From a virus (taxonomy: Duplodnaviria; Caudoviricetes): 64,000 nucleotides of DNA. The translations under genes and the position numbers were made by a program. Below the pieces are notes generated by a model. The model searched no databases, was not told the DNA's origin, and saw only the letters and a program-made list of their open reading frames with translations. Positions 4,431 to 27,380 of the stretch are shown piece after piece (position 1 is the first letter of the stretch; the number at the start of each line of letters is the position of its first letter). The stretch spans positions 64,001 through 128,000 of the IMG/VR virus record IMGVR_UViG_3300034065_000151; one strand, written 5' to 3'.

Positions 4431-5669
4431 TTAAACGAATGAAAGATTGGCAACACTTATGCGACCATAATAATCTGCCGAATTGCCTAAAGATGTGCTA
4501 GTTGAGGTAAATGTTGCTTTACCATATCTAGTCATCAATGAAACATGTGGATTGAATGTGTTAGGATCAACAACAACACCACTTGACATGATAGGGATAT
4601 ATGGGCAGTAGAAATAACCTGTATCCATTTCACCTGAACCGCCTTTGAAACCCATAAGGATTGGTTCTGTACCTTGATCAAAGTAGATATAGCTGTAAAC
4701 CTTGATACCACCATTTAATGTACCAACTAATTTGGTGTTGTTTGGACCATCGAATGAACCAGAAACAGCTGGAGCAAATACTGATTTAGATGCTGACTGC
4801 AATACTGATACAACAAGTGGTGAAACTACAATCCAATTACCTGGACCACGACGGGTTTTACGAGCGATTTCGTTAGCTACTTTGTTGATCAATACACCTA
4901 AAACAGCGTGACGATCACCAACATAGTTTGGAACACCAGTAAATGTACCTGACATATCGAATGATTCTGTAGTACCAGCTAAGGCGATAAGATCATTGAT
5001 AATTTCATTGTCGATTTCTGAAACAACAGCTGCTGAAAGTGATGCAGTGATTTCAGCTTCAAGGTCAAGACCGTGAGATGCTTTGATATCTTGCATTGCT
5101 TCAGGAGTCCAACGTGCTTGTAACTTACGTGAACCGGCTGTAACAGTTTGTTTTAATACTTCAAGAGTTAATGCACGACCACCGAATGCTTCATAGTCAG
5201 ATGTATTAGCTGCAATACCTGTTGAGGTACCTGCTGCTGGTCCACCTGCTGCTGCTGGAGCATCAGAAGTTGAGTAGAAACGCTTCATTTTTGAGTTGTT
5301 ACCGAATACTTCATCACCTGGGTTGATGTCTTCAGCTGTACCAGTATCGATAGTGCCTGGAAGGGCAGTAGTGGTTACGGCTTCTGAGAACAAGAAACGA
5401 AGTGAGTATACCAAACCAACAGGACCGGCCATAGGCTGAACACCAACAAGTTCAGTAGCGATGGTACCTGGGATGATACGTCGAATCATCGGGATAACGA
5501 TTTTCTGGAAGTTACCGATTGCGCCAGCTGATGAAGTTCCAGCAGGTGAGGTTTCTTGCAAATGTTGCATTTGATTATCTAGGACTGGTCCCAAGATACG
5601 TTTTTTACTTTCACTAAGACCATCGAGAAGGGTCTCTTTGGTTTCGTTCCAATTTTCATATAGTTCCAT
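4431..5669 (-). CDS. gp23: Major capsid protein (T4 gp23-like)
   Basis: IPMIRRIIP...GVQPMAGPVGLVYSLRF, RKLQARWTPEAMQD, FYCPYIP...MTRYG motifs. Start re-set to ATG 5669 (AGGAG RBS). Confidence 0.97.
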   Translation of the reverse strand: MELYENWNETKETLLDGLSESKKRILGPVLDNQMQHLQETSPAGTSSAGAIGNFQKIVIPMIRRIIPGTIATELVGVQPMAGPVGLVYSLRFLFSEAVTTTALPGTIDTGTAEDINPGDEVFGNNSKMKRFYSTSDAPAAAGGPAAGTSTGIAANTSDYEAFGGRALTLEVLKQTVTAGSRKLQARWTPEAMQDIKASHGLDLEAEITASLSAAVVSEIDNEIINDLIALAGTTESFDMSGTFTGVPNYVGDRHAVLGVLINKVANEIARKTRRGPGNWIVVSPLVVSVLQSASKSVFAPAVSGSFDGPNNTKLVGTLNGGIKVYSYIYFDQGTEPILMGFKGGSGEMDTGYFYCPYIPIMSSGVVVDPNTFNPHVSLMTRYGKATFTSTSTSLGNSADYYGRISVANLSFV

Positions 5670-9510: not shown

Positions 9511-10125
9511 TTATTTCTTAGTAATTGATTCGATAAATTTACGAACTTCAGCGGCGAAATACTTCTGTGCTTTTGGATCATTCTGAACTGCTTCTGCTAA
9601 TGTCAAAATACGAGTATGTTCTTTTGCTTCACGAACTGCATCTGGATAGCAACCAGGACCTGAAGGTTGTGATACAATATCCAAAGCGATAAAACTAAAG
9701 TCTTCAACGATACCATCATTGTTAACATTACCAGTACCACGTGATGAAACACCAAGCTTCATACCACCTTCGATTAATTGCTGAACAATCAAACCAGATG
9801 GTGTATTGAAGATTTTACATTTACCAACAGCATTATTACCATCCATCCAAGCTTCAGTAATAATGTGAGAAACGTTCTTAAGATCAACTGATAAATTGTC
9901 TGGGTGATTCAACTCACCAGGACATGAAATACCTTCTTTAATCTGTTGATTGATATGAGCAACCGCATTAGCGATTTCTTTTAAAGGGTACTTACGTTTA
10001 TTCAGATTTTCTTGTTCTGCCGCCATCATGCGACCAGAAAGATATAGGTTCTTACCTGAATCATGTGACTCTACAAGTTGAGCTTGTGCAGGAGTATAAT
10101 GTTCAATAAGCAATTGTGATTTCAT
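9511..10125 (-). CDS. gp21: Prohead protease (T4 gp21-like)
   Basis: N.N.R.YP, GELNHP (catalytic His), GVSSRG.G (catalytic Ser), DIV..PS. Confidence 0.95.
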   Translation of the reverse strand: MKSQLLIEHYTPAQAQLVESHDSGKNLYLSGRMMAAEQENLNKRKYPLKEIANAVAHINQQIKEGISCPGELNHPDNLSVDLKNVSHIITEAWMDGNNAVGKCKIFNTPSGLIVQQLIEGGMKLGVSSRGTGNVNNDGIVEDFSFIALDIVSQPSGPGCYPDAVREAKEHTRILTLAEAVQNDPKAQKYFAAEVRKFIESITKK

Positions 10126-18656: not shown

Positions 18657-18919
18657 TATGCATGACCAAGAACAGCTTCAATACCATCACGCTTCATACG
18701 ACGGTATACAGCTTTAGGACATTTTGGATCAAGAGTGACCGAATTGTGAATTTCAATTTGTGGCTGCATTTCTTTATGACCTTTGGCAGTTTTACCTTCT
18801 TTCATAACAGTCACTTTATGCTGGACATAACCGTAACGGGTATAAGCACCTTCAAGCACACCAGTTTTAACTAATTGGCGAACGATAATACGTAATGCTT
18901 TGGCTTTCTTTTGATTCAT
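18656..18919 (-). CDS. Hypothetical basic protein
   Basis: ORF track; coupled overlaps on both sides. Confidence 0.6.
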   Translation of the reverse strand: MNQKKAKALRIIVRQLVKTGVLEGAYTRYGYVQHKVTVMKEGKTAKGHKEMQPQIEIHNSVTLDPKCPKAVYRRMKRDGIEAVLGHA

Positions 18920-19092
18920 TTTATTTCCTTGGTTGAATTGAGAACTTCTACAAAATTGATTGCTGCTTGTTTTACATCTTCTTCATATGCTCGTTGGGAT
19001 TTTACTGCTGGAACCAAATCACTAACAATTTCCTGAATTTTTTCTTCAGGCAAATTACCAACATCCACATAAAAAATTCTTCGATTACTCAT
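18916..19092 (-). CDS. 58-aa protein beginning with a portal clip-domain motif
   Basis: Below the ORF-track cutoff. MSNRRIFYVDVGNLPEEKIQEIV...; AAGGA RBS; ATGA overlap with the next gene. Confidence 0.75.
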   Translation of the reverse strand: MSNRRIFYVDVGNLPEEKIQEIVSDLVPAVKSQRAYEEDVKQAAINFVEVLNSTKEIK

Positions 19093-20710: not shown

Positions 20711-21361
20711 CTATTCATCATTTGAATAGTCATGAGGAGTGCACCAAAAGGTTGGGCACTTTAATAGGTCATCGAAATAATGTACCTGGAGAGTTTGTTC
20801 ACAACAACCATCTGATTCAAGATCATAAGTTGTAAGTTCAAATCGTGGAAGAGGAGTCTCTTGCTTTAGATCAGTATAAGCAGTATGACTTTTCTTAACA
20901 ATAACAAATACGGGAGTACGATTCCATTTGAAAATCAACATTGGAAATTTACTTGTTTTTAAAGCATCAACTTCAGATTCTTTAAACCATTTAAAAATGT
21001 TTGCAGTATTTGCAGCAAGAGAAGTAAAACTATCTGAGTCAGCATAACTCTTACATTCAATAGAATGTAAGAAAGTTAAACCGGCTTTTTTTTCATTGAT
21101 TGGTACAACGTCAGCGGTGAATATCTTCATAGCTTCAGCACCAAACATATCACCAAACTTTTCAAAGTTCTTACCACCAACTCGTGCACCAGAACCTGGA
21201 CTACGAATGAAATTCAATGGTGCTAATGCAGCTGATAGCTTTTTAGCAACTTGTCCTTCAAATGAGTTACCTTTGGCTTTACCGCCACCGGGTCTCATTT
21301 TACGTTTTTTAGGGGAAACTGAATCCATGTCAGCATCGCTAATGGTAGATTTTTTAGTCAT
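20711..21361 (-). CDS. Holliday-junction-resolvase-like PD-(D/E)XK nuclease
   Basis: KAKGNSFE..VAK.L, R.PGSGA, D.V, IECK. TATAAATA at 21397-21404. Confidence 0.8.
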   Translation of the reverse strand: MTKKSTISDADMDSVSPKKRKMRPGGGKAKGNSFEGQVAKKLSAALAPLNFIRSPGSGARVGGKNFEKFGDMFGAEAMKIFTADVVPINEKKAGLTFLHSIECKSYADSDSFTSLAANTANIFKWFKESEVDALKTSKFPMLIFKWNRTPVFVIVKKSHTAYTDLKQETPLPRFELTTYDLESDGCCEQTLQVHYFDDLLKCPTFWCTPHDYSNDE

Positions 21362-21404
21362 ATTTTATAGGGAGTAGTTAAAAAGGAATTACCTTTTATT
21401 TATA

Positions 21405-21749
21405 CTATTCCGGGTCCCATACTTTAAACCATGATGTTAAGGGCTTAGTATGATATAAAACAGTTCGTGAAAGGATGACCAATCTGAGTTGACATTTGCC
21501 CTTTTTGACCTCAAATGTCTTATGACAAACATATTTCTGTTTAACTTTAAATGGGAAATTGATGCAAATATACCAACCATTAAGGAATTCTGATTTATAC
21601 TTATCTAACTGGATATTGTCACCATACACAATAAATGCATCTTTACTGAAAGGTTTTCCTTCTAGTCTATCTTGTTCTAATATTAATTTCATGGGTTGGA
21701 TAAGGTATAGATACACAAGTTTCTGGCCTGTGTAAGTCGGGTTAAACAT
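21405..21749 (-). CDS. Hypothetical protein (likely start MKLILEQ at 21692)
   Basis: ORF track; ATGA overlap with the upstream gene. Confidence 0.5.
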   Translation of the reverse strand: MFNPTYTGQKLVYLYLIQPMKLILEQDRLEGKPFSKDAFIVYGDNIQLDKYKSEFLNGWYICINFPFKVKQKYVCHKTFEVKKGKCQLRLVILSRTVLYHTKPLTSWFKVWDPE

Positions 21750-21949
21750 TCAAATAATATGCCAGGAGTAACTAAATTGCCACTAGTCATATGACAAAGC
21801 TGTAAAATAGATGATTCAATTTCATTAATTGTTTTCTGATCAGGAATCACCGCTTTAAAATGAGTCTCAATAAAATATATTGGATCATGTATTAAACTAG
21901 CTTGTTGAGATAGGGTTAACTTTGGTGGTGGTATATTATTGTATGTCAT
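21689..21949 (-). CDS. Small protein resembling the N-terminus of T4-like large terminase
   Basis: LT.SQ.....DPIYFIETHFKAVIPD vs the recalled TerL pattern FT.EQ..E..KC..DPIYFIENY.KI..PD. Confidence 0.6.
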   Translation of the reverse strand: MTYNNIPPPKLTLSQQASLIHDPIYFIETHFKAVIPDQKTINEIESSILQLCHMTSGNLVTPGILFECLTRLTQARNLCIYTLSNP

Positions 21950-22347
21950 TCAGCATCATCTTCCGGGATAACATTAACACCAAGCAAATTGATATCAGTA
22001 ATTTCTTTTGTACCATTATCTCGCATGTGTACATTACCTGTAGAATAAGAGCGATAAGAAACTGGAACATGACCATTTATTAAGGTTTCTAATATATGTC
22101 CCTGATGTGTATCAGCAACTTTAATTGTACCAATCATGTTACCTCCTTCTAGTTTCAAATCAGAAACAGTAAAGGCTACATCTTTTTGATCTATAGTACA
22201 ACCAATTGAACAACCAATAATTCCAGGCAATGGCTGGTTCTTAGCCTTCCATTCATCAATCGCTTTTTGTAAAGCTTCTGATGAGTAACAATTGCCATTC
22301 CGTGTTGGTACATCAGCTTTTAATATATCAACCTTAAATTCTTCCAT
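21946..22347 (-). CDS. Degenerate prohead-protease paralog (catalytic motifs eroded)
   Basis: Aligns along its length with 9511-10125: NGNCYS/NKRKYP, PGIIGC/PGELNH, IDQKDVAF/VDLKNVSH, DTHQGHILETLI/NTPSGLIVQQLI, SYRSYSTGNV/GVSSRGTGNV. Confidence 0.75.
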   Translation of the reverse strand: MEEFKVDILKADVPTRNGNCYSSEALQKAIDEWKAKNQPLPGIIGCSIGCTIDQKDVAFTVSDLKLEGGNMIGTIKVADTHQGHILETLINGHVPVSYRSYSTGNVHMRDNGTKEITDINLLGVNVIPEDDAE

Positions 22348-22348
22348 C

Positions 22349-24319
22349 TCAGTCTCCTAAAATTCGGGAAAAGCCCGATTCCTTTCTAACTACGACCGTT
22401 TTATCAAATCGGCCGACAGCCTCAGGACGATGTGAAATAATCCACATACTCAAATTATCTTCCCGAGTCTTACCCTTCAACAACTTAAATATGTTATTAA
22501 CACCTAATGAATCCAAACCACCATCAATCTCATCAACAAACAAACAGTTCACATGAGAATGTAAATGATGCAATACATCCCTAAATGATAATGACAATGA
22601 AAGATTAACACGTTTCTTTTCACCACTGGAAAGGTTACCGAAATCCAATTCACGACCATACTGTACCACAGTACAGCTCATATCATCATCAAACTTAATA
22701 ACATGAGGTAAACCCAATTCTCTGGTGTAATAAAATAAACGCTTATTCAAGAATGGAATTGTACGGCTAATAATTGTACGACGGATAAATGAATTCTTAT
22801 CAGTTAACAGTTTCAATAGGAATTGCTGATGTTCTATCAGTTTCTTCAATCTATCAAGTTCTGTATAATCAACTATATTTATAGGACTTTTCAACAGTTC
22901 TTCATGGGCTTCAATATGAGGATTAACAAGAACTGGTTGGTTTTTAAGCTGTTCAAGCACCTCAATATATGGATTAACTGGAATAGGCTGATTTTTAAGT
23001 TGTTCAAATACCTCAGTATATGGATTACTTGAATCCTTTAACTCTTTTATTTTGTTTTCAGCAATAACAGCATTAGATTCAGCTTTAAGAACTTCTTCAA
23101 GACTGCCAAATTTCATTACTTCTAATGCTGATTTCTTATCATTCAATAATGTTGCTAGTTCTGCATTTCTAATATTAATTTCATGAATCCATGTATTAAC
23201 ACTTGTTTCTTTATCATGAATAGATTCTTTTAATCCACTTATTTTCTTAGCAGCACCTTCAAATTTCTGTAAACAGTATGGACACTTTTCATCTACTAAA
23301 TGCGATAATTCTTTAGTCAGTTTTTTAATATCTGTTTCTAAAATCAAATTATCTTTTTTTAATCCATTAATCTCATTAGTGAGTCTGGTTTCTTCTGTTT
23401 TAATTCCATTAACTAATACATGAAGTTCCTTTTCTACTTCACTATCAAATGTGGAAATTAAATCATAATCTTTTTGCAATTTAACAAGTTGGGATTGTTT
23501 TTCAGTATCCCATTTGGTGATACGATCTTCTGCTTCCTTAAGCTGTTTAACCGTTTGTTTTTCTGTATCAGTATCCCATTTTTCAATACGATCTTTTGCT
23601 TCTTGAAGCTGATTAGCATATTGATTTACTGTATCATTATCCCATTTAGTAACACGCTCCTCGGCATTTTTAACTTGCTTCTGGAATAAAGCTGATTGAG
23701 ATTCCTGCTCTTTGATAACAGCTTCTTGAATAGCCGCATTACTTTCAGTTGCTTTGATAATAGCTTTCAACTTGATTGCCTTCTCAGACAACAAAGTGAT
23801 ATTAAACAATTCTTCAATCTGTGCACGTTGTTGAGCAACTGGCATCAACAAGAATGGGGTTGAGTCACCGGAGAATACAATGATCTTAGTAAACAGTTCA
23901 TAACTGATACCAATAACTTCAAGGATTAACTTATTGGTTTCTGCAGCACTTGCACAAGTAATATCTTCACCATTCTTAGTGAATGTGATTTCAGTTGATT
24001 CACCACGACTGCGATATATCTCATATGTGTCAATACCCTTATCAAAGAATAAGCGTACTTCCAACATGGTTTTCTTCAGATTATTGGTTGCATTAATCAA
24101 TCGCTGAAGCGATATCTGGCTTAATGGTTTATCATAAACCGCATAGACCAATGTATTAAGAATGGTGGTTTTACCGGAACCATTAGCACCATCATTATCA
24201 AGATTCTCGCCTTGAAGATGGGTAGTACCAGGATCACTTAAATCGATGACTGTGGTTTGATTACCAAAGGATAATACATTGCGGATATGTAGTTCTTTAA
24301 AACGAATTGGAATACTCAT
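22349..24319 (-). CDS. gp46: Rad50/SbcC-like recombination ATPase (T4 gp46-like)
   Basis: Walker A NGSGKTT, CPYC zinc hook, LSSGEK signature, LFVDE Walker B, ISH. Confidence 0.95.
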   Translation of the reverse strand: MSIPIRFKELHIRNVLSFGNQTTVIDLSDPGTTHLQGENLDNDGANGSGKTTILNTLVYAVYDKPLSQISLQRLINATNNLKKTMLEVRLFFDKGIDTYEIYRSRGESTEITFTKNGEDITCASAAETNKLILEVIGISYELFTKIIVFSGDSTPFLLMPVAQQRAQIEELFNITLLSEKAIKLKAIIKATESNAAIQEAVIKEQESQSALFQKQVKNAEERVTKWDNDTVNQYANQLQEAKDRIEKWDTDTEKQTVKQLKEAEDRITKWDTEKQSQLVKLQKDYDLISTFDSEVEKELHVLVNGIKTEETRLTNEINGLKKDNLILETDIKKLTKELSHLVDEKCPYCLQKFEGAAKKISGLKESIHDKETSVNTWIHEINIRNAELATLLNDKKSALEVMKFGSLEEVLKAESNAVIAENKIKELKDSSNPYTEVFEQLKNQPIPVNPYIEVLEQLKNQPVLVNPHIEAHEELLKSPINIVDYTELDRLKKLIEHQQFLLKLLTDKNSFIRRTIISRTIPFLNKRLFYYTRELGLPHVIKFDDDMSCTVVQYGRELDFGNLSSGEKKRVNLSLSLSFRDVLHHLHSHVNCLFVDEIDGGLDSLGVNNIFKLLKGKTREDNLSMWIISHRPEAVGRFDKTVVVRKESGFSRILGD

Positions 24320-24810
24320 AGGAAATAGATTAACTTTGCATTAGTACGGCTGAAATTTATACAGGGAATGAGTGTTTCACGCATCTCATCAAAGGCTTGT
24401 GGACTGAATTGTTTTGAAATAATAAGGTGGTCAACTGTTTTACCACGACCACCATGGGGACGGCTTATTAGAAAAATACGATTACCATTTTCAAATTCAA
24501 TTACATCCTTAGTAAATCTTTTAATTGGGATTCGATATAATTCGGGAATGCTATAAAAAATATCCCTTAACTGATATAAGATATAATCTTTTAAATTGGC
24601 ATTAGAAGAAGGAGTGGCAATGATAACATTTTTATTACTTTGATATAAACAAACCCATAAAGTAAACAACAAAACATCATCAACATCAGCACCATCTATC
24701 AGCTTATCTTCAAAGGTATTACTAAGATCCCTTCCACCATACATAGTTGAAAAGACTTCAAACTTTGTATGACTTTGTAGTTCAATAATTTGTTGTAAAG
24801 TATAGGTCAT
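24316..24810 (-). CDS. Degenerate large-terminase ATPase-like domain
   Basis: LW..LY..NKNVIIA...L..I...IP....IEFENGNRI....GRGKTVDHLII...LIPCI follows TerL ATPase order; Walker A and the Walker B DE are absent. Confidence 0.7.
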   Translation of the reverse strand: MTYTLQQIIELQSHTKFEVFSTMYGGRDLSNTFEDKLIDGADVDDVLLFTLWVCLYQSNKNVIIATPSSNANLKDYILYQLRDIFYSIPELYRIPIKRFTKDVIEFENGNRIFLISRPHGGRGKTVDHLIISKQFSPQAFDEMRETLIPCINFSRTNAKLIYFL

Positions 24811-25178
24811 GTGAAATATATTGCCCTTCCATTTTTTGGATCCATTGTTAACAAAAGCAATGCCAACTGATTCTTGTATCGTTCTAACTCATCAATAATA
24901 CCCATTGAACAAGCAATCACATTATGCTTTACATTAGCAAATGAATGCATGGTATTGATACCAACAAAACTGAAATTGCATTTGTTGTATAACTCGATAT
25001 TAGCAATTGGATGTGGGTTGTATTGAAAGGGAATACTATTCATGGTTGTTAAGATACCAGATAGTTCAACCGCTTTATCATAAGCAACTATACCCTCTTT
25101 ATAGATGACAAGATACTTTTCATCTGGACTGTTTTGACCAATCCGAATCATTTTATCAAAGAGATAGATTTCTTTCAT
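24807..25178 (-). CDS. Hypothetical protein, probably a second, more divergent terminase-ATPase-like paralog
   Basis: PDEKYLVI...SIP...IELYNKCNF...HNVIAC...AIYFT parallels 24316-24810 (...LIYFL). Confidence 0.45.
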   Translation of the reverse strand: MKEIYLFDKMIRIGQNSPDEKYLVIYKEGIVAYDKAVELSGILTTMNSIPFQYNPHPIANIELYNKCNFSFVGINTMHSFANVKHNVIACSMGIIDELERYKNQLALLLLTMDPKNGRAIYFT

Positions 25179-26215
25179 AGTGTTTCATAGATTTCTACAA
25201 GAATATCAGGTTCGATAGTTACAGTACGAGTTACACCAGTTTTTAACATAGTAATGACTGCATCATTTAATAAACTTAAATCAAGATCATCAATGGTTTC
25301 ATCACCATTAATTGAGTTCTTTTTCTCTTCAGAATTTTCTTCCAGTGAGAACTCACGGAATGTACCAGCCTTCAGCATTTCATCCTTAAAGGACTGGGCA
25401 TCTGAATAGCTAATATCTGTGTCAATAATACATTGTACCCGACATTTAGGTGGGAATGTTAAGGTTGGATCATTCAACACATCTGAAAGTTTTACCTTAC
25501 GGAATGTTGGACAGCCTTCCCAATTAATAAAATCCACATCTTCTGTTCTGGTATCTAATATTGACATACCACGATTTTCATCCCAAGCATCACCGAAGTT
25601 AGTTGGAAAGGTATTACCAATATAGATTACATTATCATTAGCTTGACGTTTGTGATAGTGACCAGAGAAGATATAAGTTGGGCCTTTAAAGACTTTATGA
25701 TCTGGACCATGTTCCATCATTCTATCGGAACCGGTTACTACAAAGTTCTTGAATTCAAAGTGACCGAATACATATTTAGGCTTATGCTTTTTAATAATAG
25801 CTGCAGCATTACCATATTCTGCATCAAATAAGTATGGGAAGAATATACACTTTTCATTATCAATGTGGTCATTAAGTGGTTCGTCCACTAATCGAACATT
25901 TAAGAATTGAGTGTAATGATAAGTAGAGAATTGGTACCGGTCATTGCGATGATAAAGATCATGATTACCAACCAGAAAATAGATTGGTAAGCCGAGTTTA
26001 TTTAATTTATCTAAGGCATCATAGGAAGCATTTAATGTAGCTACATTAATTGCATTCCTATTTTCAAACCAGTCACCCATGAAAACAATAGTATCACATT
26101 TATTCTTCTTGACCTGAGACATAAACCAGTCTACATATTCCGTGCAGTCTTGGTTATGTTGATCACTATTATTACGACATCCCCAATGGATGTCGGTAAA
26201 CATTGCTATTTTCAT
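25175..26215 (-). CDS. gp47: Mre11/SbcD-like nuclease (T4 gp47-like)
   Basis: DIHWG, GDWF, GNHD, GHFE, SGHYH metallophosphoesterase motifs. Confidence 0.95.
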   Translation of the reverse strand: MKIAMFTDIHWGCRNNSDQHNQDCTEYVDWFMSQVKKNKCDTIVFMGDWFENRNAINVATLNASYDALDKLNKLGLPIYFLVGNHDLYHRNDRYQFSTYHYTQFLNVRLVDEPLNDHIDNEKCIFFPYLFDAEYGNAAAIIKKHKPKYVFGHFEFKNFVVTGSDRMMEHGPDHKVFKGPTYIFSGHYHKRQANDNVIYIGNTFPTNFGDAWDENRGMSILDTRTEDVDFINWEGCPTFRKVKLSDVLNDPTLTFPPKCRVQCIIDTDISYSDAQSFKDEMLKAGTFREFSLEENSEEKKNSINGDETIDDLDLSLLNDAVITMLKTGVTRTVTIEPDILVEIYETL

Positions 26216-26217
26216 TA

Positions 26218-26439
26218 TTAACCTTGAACTTTATTCATTGTCCATTTACCATCACGGAAATCACCACGAGGATCATATTGACCTTCGGTACCAAATCCAT
26301 CATTATTACCATGGATATCATTAATCATGAATTCTAAATCCTGTGCAAATTCTTTTGCAAAGTTATTATCTTCATTGGATAATTTAATAAGACGAGTCAA
26401 TACTAATTCAATATTTTTTTGAATTTTTGTTTGCTTCAT
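26218..26439 (-). CDS. Hypothetical protein
   Basis: ORF track; TAATG coupling with gp55. Confidence 0.6.
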   Translation of the reverse strand: MKQTKIQKNIELVLTRLIKLSNEDNNFAKEFAQDLEFMINDIHGNNDGFGTEGQYDPRGDFRDGKWTMNKVQG

Positions 26440-27380
26440 TACTTTTCCTTTTTGGCTTTTGGCATTTTCAAAATTTTAAGTTCTTTAACAACTTTAGGAG
26501 CTTTGACAGGTTTCTCTTTTTTAACTTTAGGAACCTTTAGCTTTACTACTTTTTCTTTCTTAACCTTAACAGGTTTCTCCACTGCAACTTCACCTTCGGG
26601 CTTTGGTTTACGCTGGAACATAATCCGTTTAGGAGGTGGAGCTTTAACTGGTAATGCGGCGACTTCATCAACCTTACCAACAGCACCTTCTCGGATTGAA
26701 ATAGCACCAGTTTCTGGGTCTATAATTATATCTTCTGCTTTGTATGTGGTAATAGAGCTTGGTGATTTCCCCCGATTCCGTACTCGATCTTCAAATGGAG
26801 TAACTGGACATTGTGTTGGTGCTTTAGGAACATCGACAAGAACACCATCAACTAAGACTTTCTGTTGAAGTAGTTCTTCATCTTCGGCTTCTAAAAGGAA
26901 CTGATTATATACTTCTACATGCTCATCTGATTCTTTAATTTCAAAATGAGATTCATCTTTTTCACCTTGTAAGAAATTGTATGATGGATTTGATCCAGCA
27001 TCAATTAATAACATATCTCTAATATTTCGGTGTTTTTTCTCATCAGCAATACATTGTAAGAACGTATTGTGAATAGCAGATGTGTAGTATGAGAAGGGAT
27101 TTGGTTTATCACTTCTATCAAGATCAAAGTTTAAAGCGTTTTTACATAGATTTTCAACTGCAGTCGAAACCATATCAGCTCTAAAGGTATAATTTACAAA
27201 GTTACCTTTACGTGAATAGCGCTCTGCAATCATCCATATCATGGCGATAAGTTCACTTGTCACTTCATTCAGTTCTTTGGCTTTGATAACTTCTGGTAAT
27301 AATACACCATTCGTTACGTAATGCCCAACTTCACTTGTGGATTTCTCTCTTTTTACTCGTTTTGCTTTAGTTTGAATCAA
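26439..27380 (-). CDS. gp55: Late-transcription sigma factor (T4 gp55-like) with Lys-rich C-terminal extension
   Basis: HYVTN, IA..YS.K.NF.NYTFR.DMV, NPFSYYT; adjacent to gp47/gp46 as in T4. Confidence 0.9.
   Translation of the reverse strand: MIQTKAKRVKREKSTSEVGHYVTNGVLLPEVIKAKELNEVTSELIAMIWMIAERYSRKGNFVNYTFRADMVSTAVENLCKNALNFDLDRSDKPNPFSYYTSAIHNTFLQCIADEKKHRNIRDMLLIDAGSNPSYNFLQGEKDESHFEIKESDEHVEVYNQFLLEAEDEELLQQKVLVDGVLVDVPKAPTQCPVTPFEDRVRNRGKSPSSITTYKAEDIIIDPETGAISIREGAVGKVDEVAALPVKAPPPKRIMFQRKPKPEGEVAVEKPVKVKKEKVVKLKVPKVKKEKPVKAPKVVKELKILKMPKAKKEK

Follow-up and report, generated by a model that had tools for sequence, protein, structure and literature searches.

The gp55-gp47-gp46 gene block

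The window, a 64,000-nucleotide stretch of DNA corresponding to bases 64001-128000 of a 140,766-bp IMG/VR viral contig (CheckV completeness 40%), comes from a T4-like phage with a gp20-type portal, a gp55-type late sigma factor, gp46 and gp47. The subject here is a pair of small open reading frames (ORFs) between gp47 and gp46, named ORF1 and ORF2, and their relation to the ATPase core of the large terminase, TerL. Both lie on the minus strand in a block of genes without gaps, 27380-21405, which begins with gp55 and continues with a 73-amino-acid (aa) ORF, gp47, ORF2, ORF1, gp46, a 133-aa protease-like ORF, an 86-aa ORF and a 114-aa ORF. A preliminary description of this DNA had placed two dead terminase-ATPase-like domains at 24316-24810 and 24807-25178, inserted between gp47 and gp46 and coupled into their operon. 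Minus-strand ORFs exist at exactly these coordinates. They are two separate small genes, not two domains; the word "inserted" stands, as close relatives have gp47 abutting gp46. The coupling is also as described, with an ATGA stop-start overlap at each of the three junctions (gp47/ORF2, ORF2/ORF1 and ORF1/gp46). The features of the locus are:

26439-27380, minus strand: gp55-like late sigma factor, opening the block that contains ORF2 and ORF1
25175-26215, minus strand: gp47-like Mre11/SbcD nuclease, whose stop codon shares ATGA with the start of ORF2
24807-25178, minus strand: ORF2, 123 aa, probably another TerL-ATPase-core-like protein, much more diverged than ORF1 (from its ESM Atlas model)
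24888-24893, minus strand: ORF2 D96-E97 (GIIDE), aligned by hhalign, without significance, to Walker B of TerL
24316-24810, minus strand: ORF1, 164 aa, stand-alone TerL ATPase-core homologue (gp17 N-subdomain I; from sequence, profile and predicted fold)
24682-24690, minus strand: ORF1 residues 41-43, site of the deleted Walker A P-loop (from alignment, model secondary structure and a motif table)
24442-24447, minus strand: ORF1 R122-G123, arginine-finger-loop pair (from alignment to TerL)
24412-24417, minus strand: ORF1 S132-K133, where TerL has the Walker B Asp and its catalytic Glu (from alignment)
22349-24319, minus strand: gp46-like Rad50/SbcC ATPase, whose start codon shares ATGA with the stop of ORF1

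The T4 late-promoter motif TATAAATA precedes the structural genes and the gene of a PDDEXK endonuclease; none was found ahead of gp47, ORF2 or ORF1. From the ATGA coupling and the lack of this motif upstream we infer that ORF1 and ORF2 are expressed together with gp47 and gp46, as early or middle genes. Copies of the motif stand ahead of the portal gene and other head genes. The copy at 21397-21404 (minus strand) lies just upstream of the PDDEXK/RusA-like endonuclease gene (20711-21361) and marks the end of the block that runs from gp55 to the 114-aa ORF. The gp55-like sigma factor is 313 aa long vs 185 aa in T4, with a long C-terminal tail rich in Lys, Pro and Val (KPKPEGE..KVKKEK..); the gp55 ORFs of relatives range from 180 to 319 aa.

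Both frames remain open in a genome of 34% guanine-plus-cytosine (GC) content. When the region was shuffled, an open stretch of at least 164 codons arose in none of 2000 shuffles and one of at least 123 codons in 7 of 2000. The codon-position GC pattern of ORF1 is that of its neighbours, and the pattern of ORF2 is roughly similar.

ORF1 and the TerL ATPase core

ORF1 had been read as a dead terminase-ATPase-like protein with the motif order of TerL, and LWVCLY, NVIIA, IEFENGNRI, GRGKTVDHLII and LIPCI are all present in it. BLASTP, the family profile and the predicted structure all lead to TerL. Against the N-terminal part of the phage's own TerL, BLASTP aligns ORF1 with 27% identity over 110 residues (47.8 bits, E=1e-11). 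ORF1 matches phrog_5989, "terminase large subunit", at E=6.5e-8; its match to Pfam Terminase_6N is weak, 16.3 bits, under the 22-bit gathering threshold. An exhaustive phmmer search of 1.84 billion representatives returned 37 hits, about a dozen of them stand-alone proteins and the remainder N-terminal parts of TerLs. The stand-alone relatives are mostly 157-171 aa long and several align end to end with ORF1. A near relative, P0002, has 79% identity and almost equal length. When a profile built from twelve small members was compared with PDB, T4 gp17 was found at E=1.1e-16. Positions 3-160 of this profile correspond to native residues 102-284 of gp17 (numbering verified by D255/E256), with a gap at the gp17 Walker A segment.

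The structure of ORF1 was predicted by AlphaFold from 41 sequences with a local confidence score (pLDDT, predicted local distance difference test) of 94.7 and a predicted template-modelling score (pTM) of 0.88. As the preliminary description had proposed, the model was searched with Foldseek, and the best structural matches are TerLs. The gp17 ATPase domain comes first (E=3e-8, template-modelling score, TM, 0.79). Of the 24 PDB matches at E<=1e-3 nearly all are packaging terminases of viruses, among them the TerL chain from the Avs3 complex 8dgc. Structure searches of BFVD and the ESM Atlas agree on a TerL-type fold; in the latter, where ORF1 served as the positive control for ORF2, it has TM 0.78-0.80 to the same kind of terminase-ATPase cluster. 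Sequence, profile and fold all agree, and ORF1 is thus very probably a stand-alone pseudo-enzyme derived from the TerL ATPase core.

Searches at the DNA level were made for further copies. No match to ORF1 or ORF2 was found by tblastn in 50,697 cultured phage records, and the relatives P0005 and P0010 matched only true TerLs there (PAU gp87 is that phage's real TerL). IMG/VR scans queried with P0004, P0005 and ORF1 found nothing, nor did metagenome scans for DNA of the close relatives P0002 and P0003. Small uncharacterised TerL-like proteins of cultured phages are present in BFVD: S5Y8Z1 of Mycobacterium phage Catdawg (125 aa), A0A1C9EHN3 of Gordonia phage Hedwig (122 aa) and A0A2C9CX17 of Yersinia phage fHe-Yen9-04 (185 aa). 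Their TM to the ORF1 model, by target, is 0.63-0.71, and they are candidate mini-TerLs tractable by experiment.

The nucleotide site is where ORF1 departs from TerL. Walker A, SRQSGKT in the phage's own TerL, is deleted; in the ORF1 model strand beta1 (37-41) passes straight into helix alpha1 (43-56) and there is no P-loop. Walker A is likewise absent from all 15 small relatives read, none of which has GK[ST]. At the Walker B site ORF1 has LIISK, whereas the phage's own TerL has LYLDE and gp17 has IYIDE. The absence of Walker A and the replacement of LDE by ISK had both been claimed from the sequence, and both hold. In the small relatives the Walker B site is mostly lost (VST, IND, LST, IHS, VSS and similar). 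ORF1, like nearly all the small members, ends at the strand that carries motif III in TerL (..LIYF vs TerL ..MIITSTPNG). It has no lid/subdomain II, no portal-binding part and no RNase-H-like nuclease domain; Terminase_6C is found only in the real TerL. The hydrophobic core, the TerL-specific IEF-NG-RI hairpin and an R/K-G loop are kept in the family. About 15 diverse stand-alone relatives have the same build as ORF1, with the P-loop missing and nearly all with the same C-terminal point. By its sequence and predicted structure ORF1 is catalytically dead: canonical ATP binding and hydrolysis are lost to it and, having no nucleotide site, it must work through binding alone.

In many TerL-ATPase hits of 200-310 aa the residue after RQxG is T, S, G, R, I, M or A where Walker A has its Lys (P0008, P0010, P0017, P0018, P0020, P0024, P0026, P0028-P0032 and P0038). 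Several of them end at the ..EFxCxF motif that closes the ATPase domain. These proteins may be terminases with a deviant Walker A, N-terminal parts of fractured TerLs, or further inactive paralogues. They are not called dead here because terminases with a deviant Walker A exist, as Mitchell and Rao reportedly described in 2004.

The phage's own TerL lies outside the window and is encoded in two ORFs (G000:C1, ~38.9-41.9 kb):

L001:1267-2151, minus strand: TerL N-part, 294 aa, with SRQSGKT, LYLDE and TSTPNG
L032:1357-2502, minus strand: TerL C-part, 381 aa, Terminase_6C above cut-off

The last ~36 residues of the N-part begin C-L-S. The first ~117 residues of the C-part are Hint-like and end ..SHN|C, with the remaining TerL after them. 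Two ORFs, of 99 and 222 aa, separate the parts, and the larger weakly matches a restriction-endonuclease-like family. By its sequence the TerL gene resembles one broken up by a split intein of atypical kind, accompanied by a free-standing homing endonuclease, presumably a case akin to AceL-TerL and other "fractured genes". A comparison with the full TerL elsewhere in the genome had been proposed as a check, and an intact TerL is present. It has its own Walker A, Walker B, motif III and nuclease, and ORF1 and ORF2 as parts of a split functional TerL are out.

ORF2 and the slot between gp47 and gp46

ORF2 is a weaker case. It has one known homologue cluster, P0003, 89% identical and of the same length, and no significant match in Pfam, PHROGs or PDB, or to the phage's own TerL, ORF1 or vs.8, a T4 protein discussed below. 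When compared by hhalign with TerL-containing alignments, it gave E=0.018-0.064 (0.018-0.085 over all hhalign comparisons) at probabilities below 3%, which is not significant. The same alignment is collinear, with IP, IELYN, GIIDE and AIYF falling on the LP, IEFxN, Walker B and C-terminal strand columns. There is no Walker A and no R-G arginine-finger motif; GIIDE is Walker-B-like and the C-terminal end is AIYFT. The preliminary description had seen a faint TerL skeleton in ORF2 and a C-terminus shared with ORF1. The shared end is confirmed (IYFL in ORF1, IYFT in ORF2). The skeleton stands as a collinear alignment in the expected register; significance by BLASTP, Pfam or hhalign does not come with it.

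The AlphaFold model of ORF2, made from two sequences, has pLDDT 33 and is uninformative. The ESM Atlas model has pTM 0.74, and ten of its ten structure neighbours are terminase-ATPase clusters, with TM 0.72-0.82 over 108-118 of the 123 residues; one of these clusters consists of stand-alone 126-aa proteins. On this model ORF2 would be, with moderate probability, a second derivative of the TerL core. The assignment had been called weak and is still weak, the ESM Atlas model being what speaks for it. A less probable but serious alternative is that ORF2 is an unrelated, lineage-specific small alpha/beta protein that merely adjoins ORF1. The absence of significant similarity to any of the proteins and families named above would fit this alternative, as would the uninformative AlphaFold model and the single homologue cluster, and Rossmann-like folds are common. 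It fits less well with the ESM Atlas neighbours, none of which belongs to the generic P-loop or Rossmann families, or with the right register of the TerL motifs in the best hhalign alignment (IP, IE..N, IIDE, IYF). Further, the size and C-terminal end of ORF2 are the same as those of 127-134-aa mini-TerLs, as the small ORF1-like proteins are called here, at the same position in other phages (L003, L006 and L012).

The slot between gp47 and gp46 was followed through 19 IMG/VR loci with gp47 at 41-67% identity, and through a second set of 80 further loci. In loci L003, L006 and L012 a mini-TerL (profile E=1e-11 to 5e-15) fills precisely this slot. These are the three among ~90 related contigs that, besides the window, carry a mini-TerL in the slot. 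In the other first-set loci that reach gp46, gp47 is joined directly to gp46 or a short unrelated ORF lies between, and the mini-TerL is absent from L004, L005, L009-L011 and L017-L020. Among the 80 further loci it occurs only in L033, which is the L006 contig, and gp47 abuts gp46 in ~58. Unrelated cargo in the second set includes a conserved SDR-like 200-aa ORF (8 loci), an HNH endonuclease (L092), an oxygenase-like ORF of 163 aa (L061) and a very acidic ORF of 162 aa (L038). The loci with hotspot cargo are L064, L065, L069, L071, L072, L087, L090 (~4470-5100), L092, L061, L038 and L035. No ORF2 homologue was found in the slot among the relatives' loci.

Comparison of L003 with L004 shows DNA 78% identical on both flanks of a clean 610-bp indel, within which lie the mini-TerL and an 88-aa ORF. 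A complete 358-kb relative with terminal repeats has TerL only and no mini-TerL. Between the same pairs of genomes the mini-TerLs are 28-35% identical vs 54-74% for gp55, gp47 and gp46. The slot carries varied cargo and the mini-TerL is patchy; thus the gp47/gp46 junction is a general accessory-gene hotspot in T4-like phages and the mini-TerL, judged from these sequence comparisons, is a passenger that evolves fast and can be dispensed with. Inheritance within the clade, with repeated losses, is its probable history.

Two explanations of the mini-TerL meet this evidence directly. In the first, it is an accessory subunit of the gp46/gp47 (Rad50/Mre11) recombination nuclease and is co-translated with it. 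Such a role would suit its ATGA-coupled place in the gp47/gp46 slot of four diverged phages. Most relatives, however, join gp47 directly to gp46, the slot elsewhere holds unrelated cargo, and the mini-TerL has a neutral isoelectric point and no DNA-binding signature, which makes the role very improbable. A DNA-mimic or DNA-binding role was also considered and was rejected, the isoelectric point being near neutral across the family.

In the second, ORF1 and ORF2 are functionless, decaying relics of old partial TerL duplications. The lost active-site motifs, the low identity to TerL, the patchy presence with fast divergence, and the absence of the gene from the complete relative are what decay might leave. 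However, both ORFs are intact and tightly coupled, and frames this long do not arise by chance. A diverse alignment yields the ORF1 fold with very high predicted confidence, ~15 relatives drawn from various phages retain the hydrophobic core and, very nearly, the boundaries, and the near relatives at 79-89% identity are almost unchanged in length. Decay is thus an improbable account of the pair.

Possible functions and comparison with known systems

The overall best explanation, held tentatively, is that ORF1 and ORF2 are non-catalytic mimics of TerL. They would be translated with gp47 and gp46 before TerL is made, and would be held by selection as look-alikes of the TerL ATPase surface. Selection for their retention is suggested because ~15 relatives share the build, the frames stay open and the lengths of P0002 and P0003 are kept. 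No phage "pattern" is sensed more widely by the innate immunity of bacteria than TerL, the reason being that its active site cannot mutate. It is possible, though doubtful, that ORF1 and ORF2 are involved in a contest between the phage and host sensors of the TerL ATPase fold (Avs1-3 and Upx). In one variant, the protein would fill the pocket of the sensor yet lack the bound ATP and the active-site residues on which activation depends, as a decoy or blocker. In the other, it would be an accessory protein like vs.8 that has shed exactly the features that are recognised.

Several points weigh against mimicry. First, a mimic without ATP, lid or nuclease covers part of the Avs interface and may not bind. 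Second, vs.8, the only tested analogue, activates Avs2 instead of blocking it. Third, the slot holds unrelated cargo in other phages, so position says little, and fast evolution with patchy presence fits relaxed constraint too. Fourth, the TerL assignment of ORF2 is a single line of evidence, a language-model structure search.

The retained R/K-G loop brings in another explanation. R122-G123 of ORF1 aligns with R139 of P74-26 TerL and R245 of T4 gp17, ~11 residues before the position of the catalytic Glu. P74-26 R139 is a trans-acting arginine finger (PMC5389665). The score of the P74-26 R139A chain is 6 bits below that of the wild type, and the printed alignment puts R-G on R-G. The G is invariant in the aligned sets, and 15 of the 16 small relatives read have R or K before it. 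With this arginine-finger face retained, the mini-TerL might dock on the ATP-bound face of TerL and so cap or regulate the packaging motor, either ending ring growth (as a poison of the phage's own premature TerL, or of that of a competitor or satellite) or stimulating hydrolysis in trans. It would fit such docking that R/K-G is among the best conserved features of the small family and aligns with a trans-acting finger, and that ORF1 retains the TerL-specific hairpin. Less fitting is that the finger position admits R, K and Q, a latitude uncommon among catalytic fingers; R/K-G may instead have a structural role. Moreover, ORF2 has no R-G motif and the gene is dispensable in close relatives, including the complete genome. 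A motor cap is unlikely.

Mimicry directed at immune sensors gains some weight because neighbouring genes look like dead or partial copies of head proteins, a protease and a portal. The 133-aa ORF directly after gp46 (21946-22347, minus strand) is a paralogue of the real prohead protease (9511-10125). It matches Peptidase_S77 at E=1e-5, below the cut-off, and phrog_207 at E=5e-11, and its His and Ser positions are replaced. It is kept after gp46 in L003, L009, L010 and L011, which include genomes without a mini-TerL. A 58-aa ORF (18916-19092, minus strand), which begins ..RRIFYVDVGNLPEEK.., carries the portal motif RIFYVDVGNLP and is 44% identical over 18 aa to residues 260-277 of the phage's own portal (pairwise E=7e-6). 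In the 86-aa ORF (21689-21949, minus strand), DPIYFIETH resembles DPVYFIKNY near the TerL N-terminus, a 9-residue match at pairwise E=0.024; this ORF has no hit in the family libraries.

An extension of the mimic explanation, rather improbable as it stands, would make the gp46/gp47 block a set of dead or partial look-alikes, comprising two TerL cores, the protease paralogue and the portal-motif peptide, that act as decoys. Produced earlier than the genuine proteins, the look-alikes would saturate or blind fold-detecting receptors, Avs1-3 and Upx in the case of TerL and Avs4 in the case of the portal. Across the functions considered, immune mimicry ranks first, as a doubtful possibility, followed by the unlikely TerL cap or regulator, then by the improbable relic and last by the still less probable gp46/gp47 cofactor.

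What is at stake differs between these explanations. A decoy set, if true, would be an undescribed "molecular decoy" strategy against fold-based innate immunity. A motor cap, if true, would be the first dedicated pseudo-subunit of a viral terminase, and relics would amount to a tidy annotation of two ORFans. What Avs and Upx require could naturally be probed with a TerL fold that has lost its ATP pocket, whether it binds without activation or goes unseen. The mini-TerL family offers small, well-folding constructs for direct tests of either mimicry or capping.

Known systems resemble the locus in different respects. The two small ORFs 46.1 and 46.2 of T4 occupy the same slot between genes 47 and 46. 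They have no similarity to ORF1, ORF2 or the family profile, and no homology of ORF1 or ORF2 to these or to other occupants of the slot was found. In literature searches no TerL decoy, dead TerL paralogue or anti-Avs work involving the large terminase was found described.

The closest likeness is to N-subdomain I of gp17 (PDB 2o0h, 2o0j and 3cpe; Terminase_6N), to which ORF1 is homologous in sequence and fold over native residues ~102-284. The two have in common the N-terminal helices, beta1, alpha1, the VIIA strand and the IE-NGS-I hairpin, as well as the R-G arginine-finger loop, the Walker B strand and the motif-III strand. Unlike gp17, ORF1 has its P-loop deleted and the Walker B Asp-Glu changed to Ser-Lys, and it is without the lid/subdomain II, the portal-binding part and the nuclease. 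Unlike TerL, it is encoded in the early or middle gp55-gp47-gp46 block and not among the late head genes.

T4 vs.8 (NP_049732) is, like ORF1, a small stand-alone protein of a T4-like phage that comes from the TerL ATPase core and is non-late. It ends at the motif-III strand (..FFVIGMQ), which parallels ..LIYFL of ORF1, and it too has the R-G loop. In contrast to ORF1, vs.8 has a canonical Walker A (GGRQSGKS/T) and Walker B (IIDE/IIEE), and its gene adjoins denV and vs.7. GGRQ[ST]GK[ST], II[DE]E and the ..FFVIGMQ end are found in all six sequences of a set consisting of vs.8 and five homologues, whereas ORF1 has neither Walker motif. When a profile of these six was compared with the ORF1 family by hhalign, the match had E=0.0036 and a probability of 9% and was collinear over 76 columns. 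Membership of ORF1 in the vs.8 family is not supported, the ORF1 family being far nearer to TerL (gp17 at 1e-16). The ORF1 family and vs.8 are therefore treated, on their sequences, as separate offshoots of TerL, that of ORF1 having an analogous architecture without a P-loop.

The behaviour of vs.8 bears on the mimic explanation. Evans et al. (Nat Commun 2026, PMC13601566) describe it as an uncharacterised homologue of the ATPase domain of T4 TerL that retains both Walker motifs, and as a trigger of EcAvs2. On its own, the ATPase domain of TerL suffices to activate EcAvs2 and Upx, and SeAvs3 and EcAvs2 read active-site residues and bound ATP (PMC13601566). The authors suggest that non-terminase activators such as vs.8 might be anti-defence proteins (PMC13601566). 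Ksap1 and Ksap2 are also non-terminase activators of Avs2, with a terminase-ATPase-like secondary structure and a predicted position in the Avs2 pocket (PMC11564622, PMC13601566). Going by their published description, they are like ORF1 in being small, lineage-restricted phage proteins; they differ in being reported to trigger, not to block, and in their origin from unrelated groups of phages. Taken with vs.8, Ksap1 and Ksap2, ORF1 suggests that small TerL look-alikes are a recurrent, unexplained accessory class in large phages.

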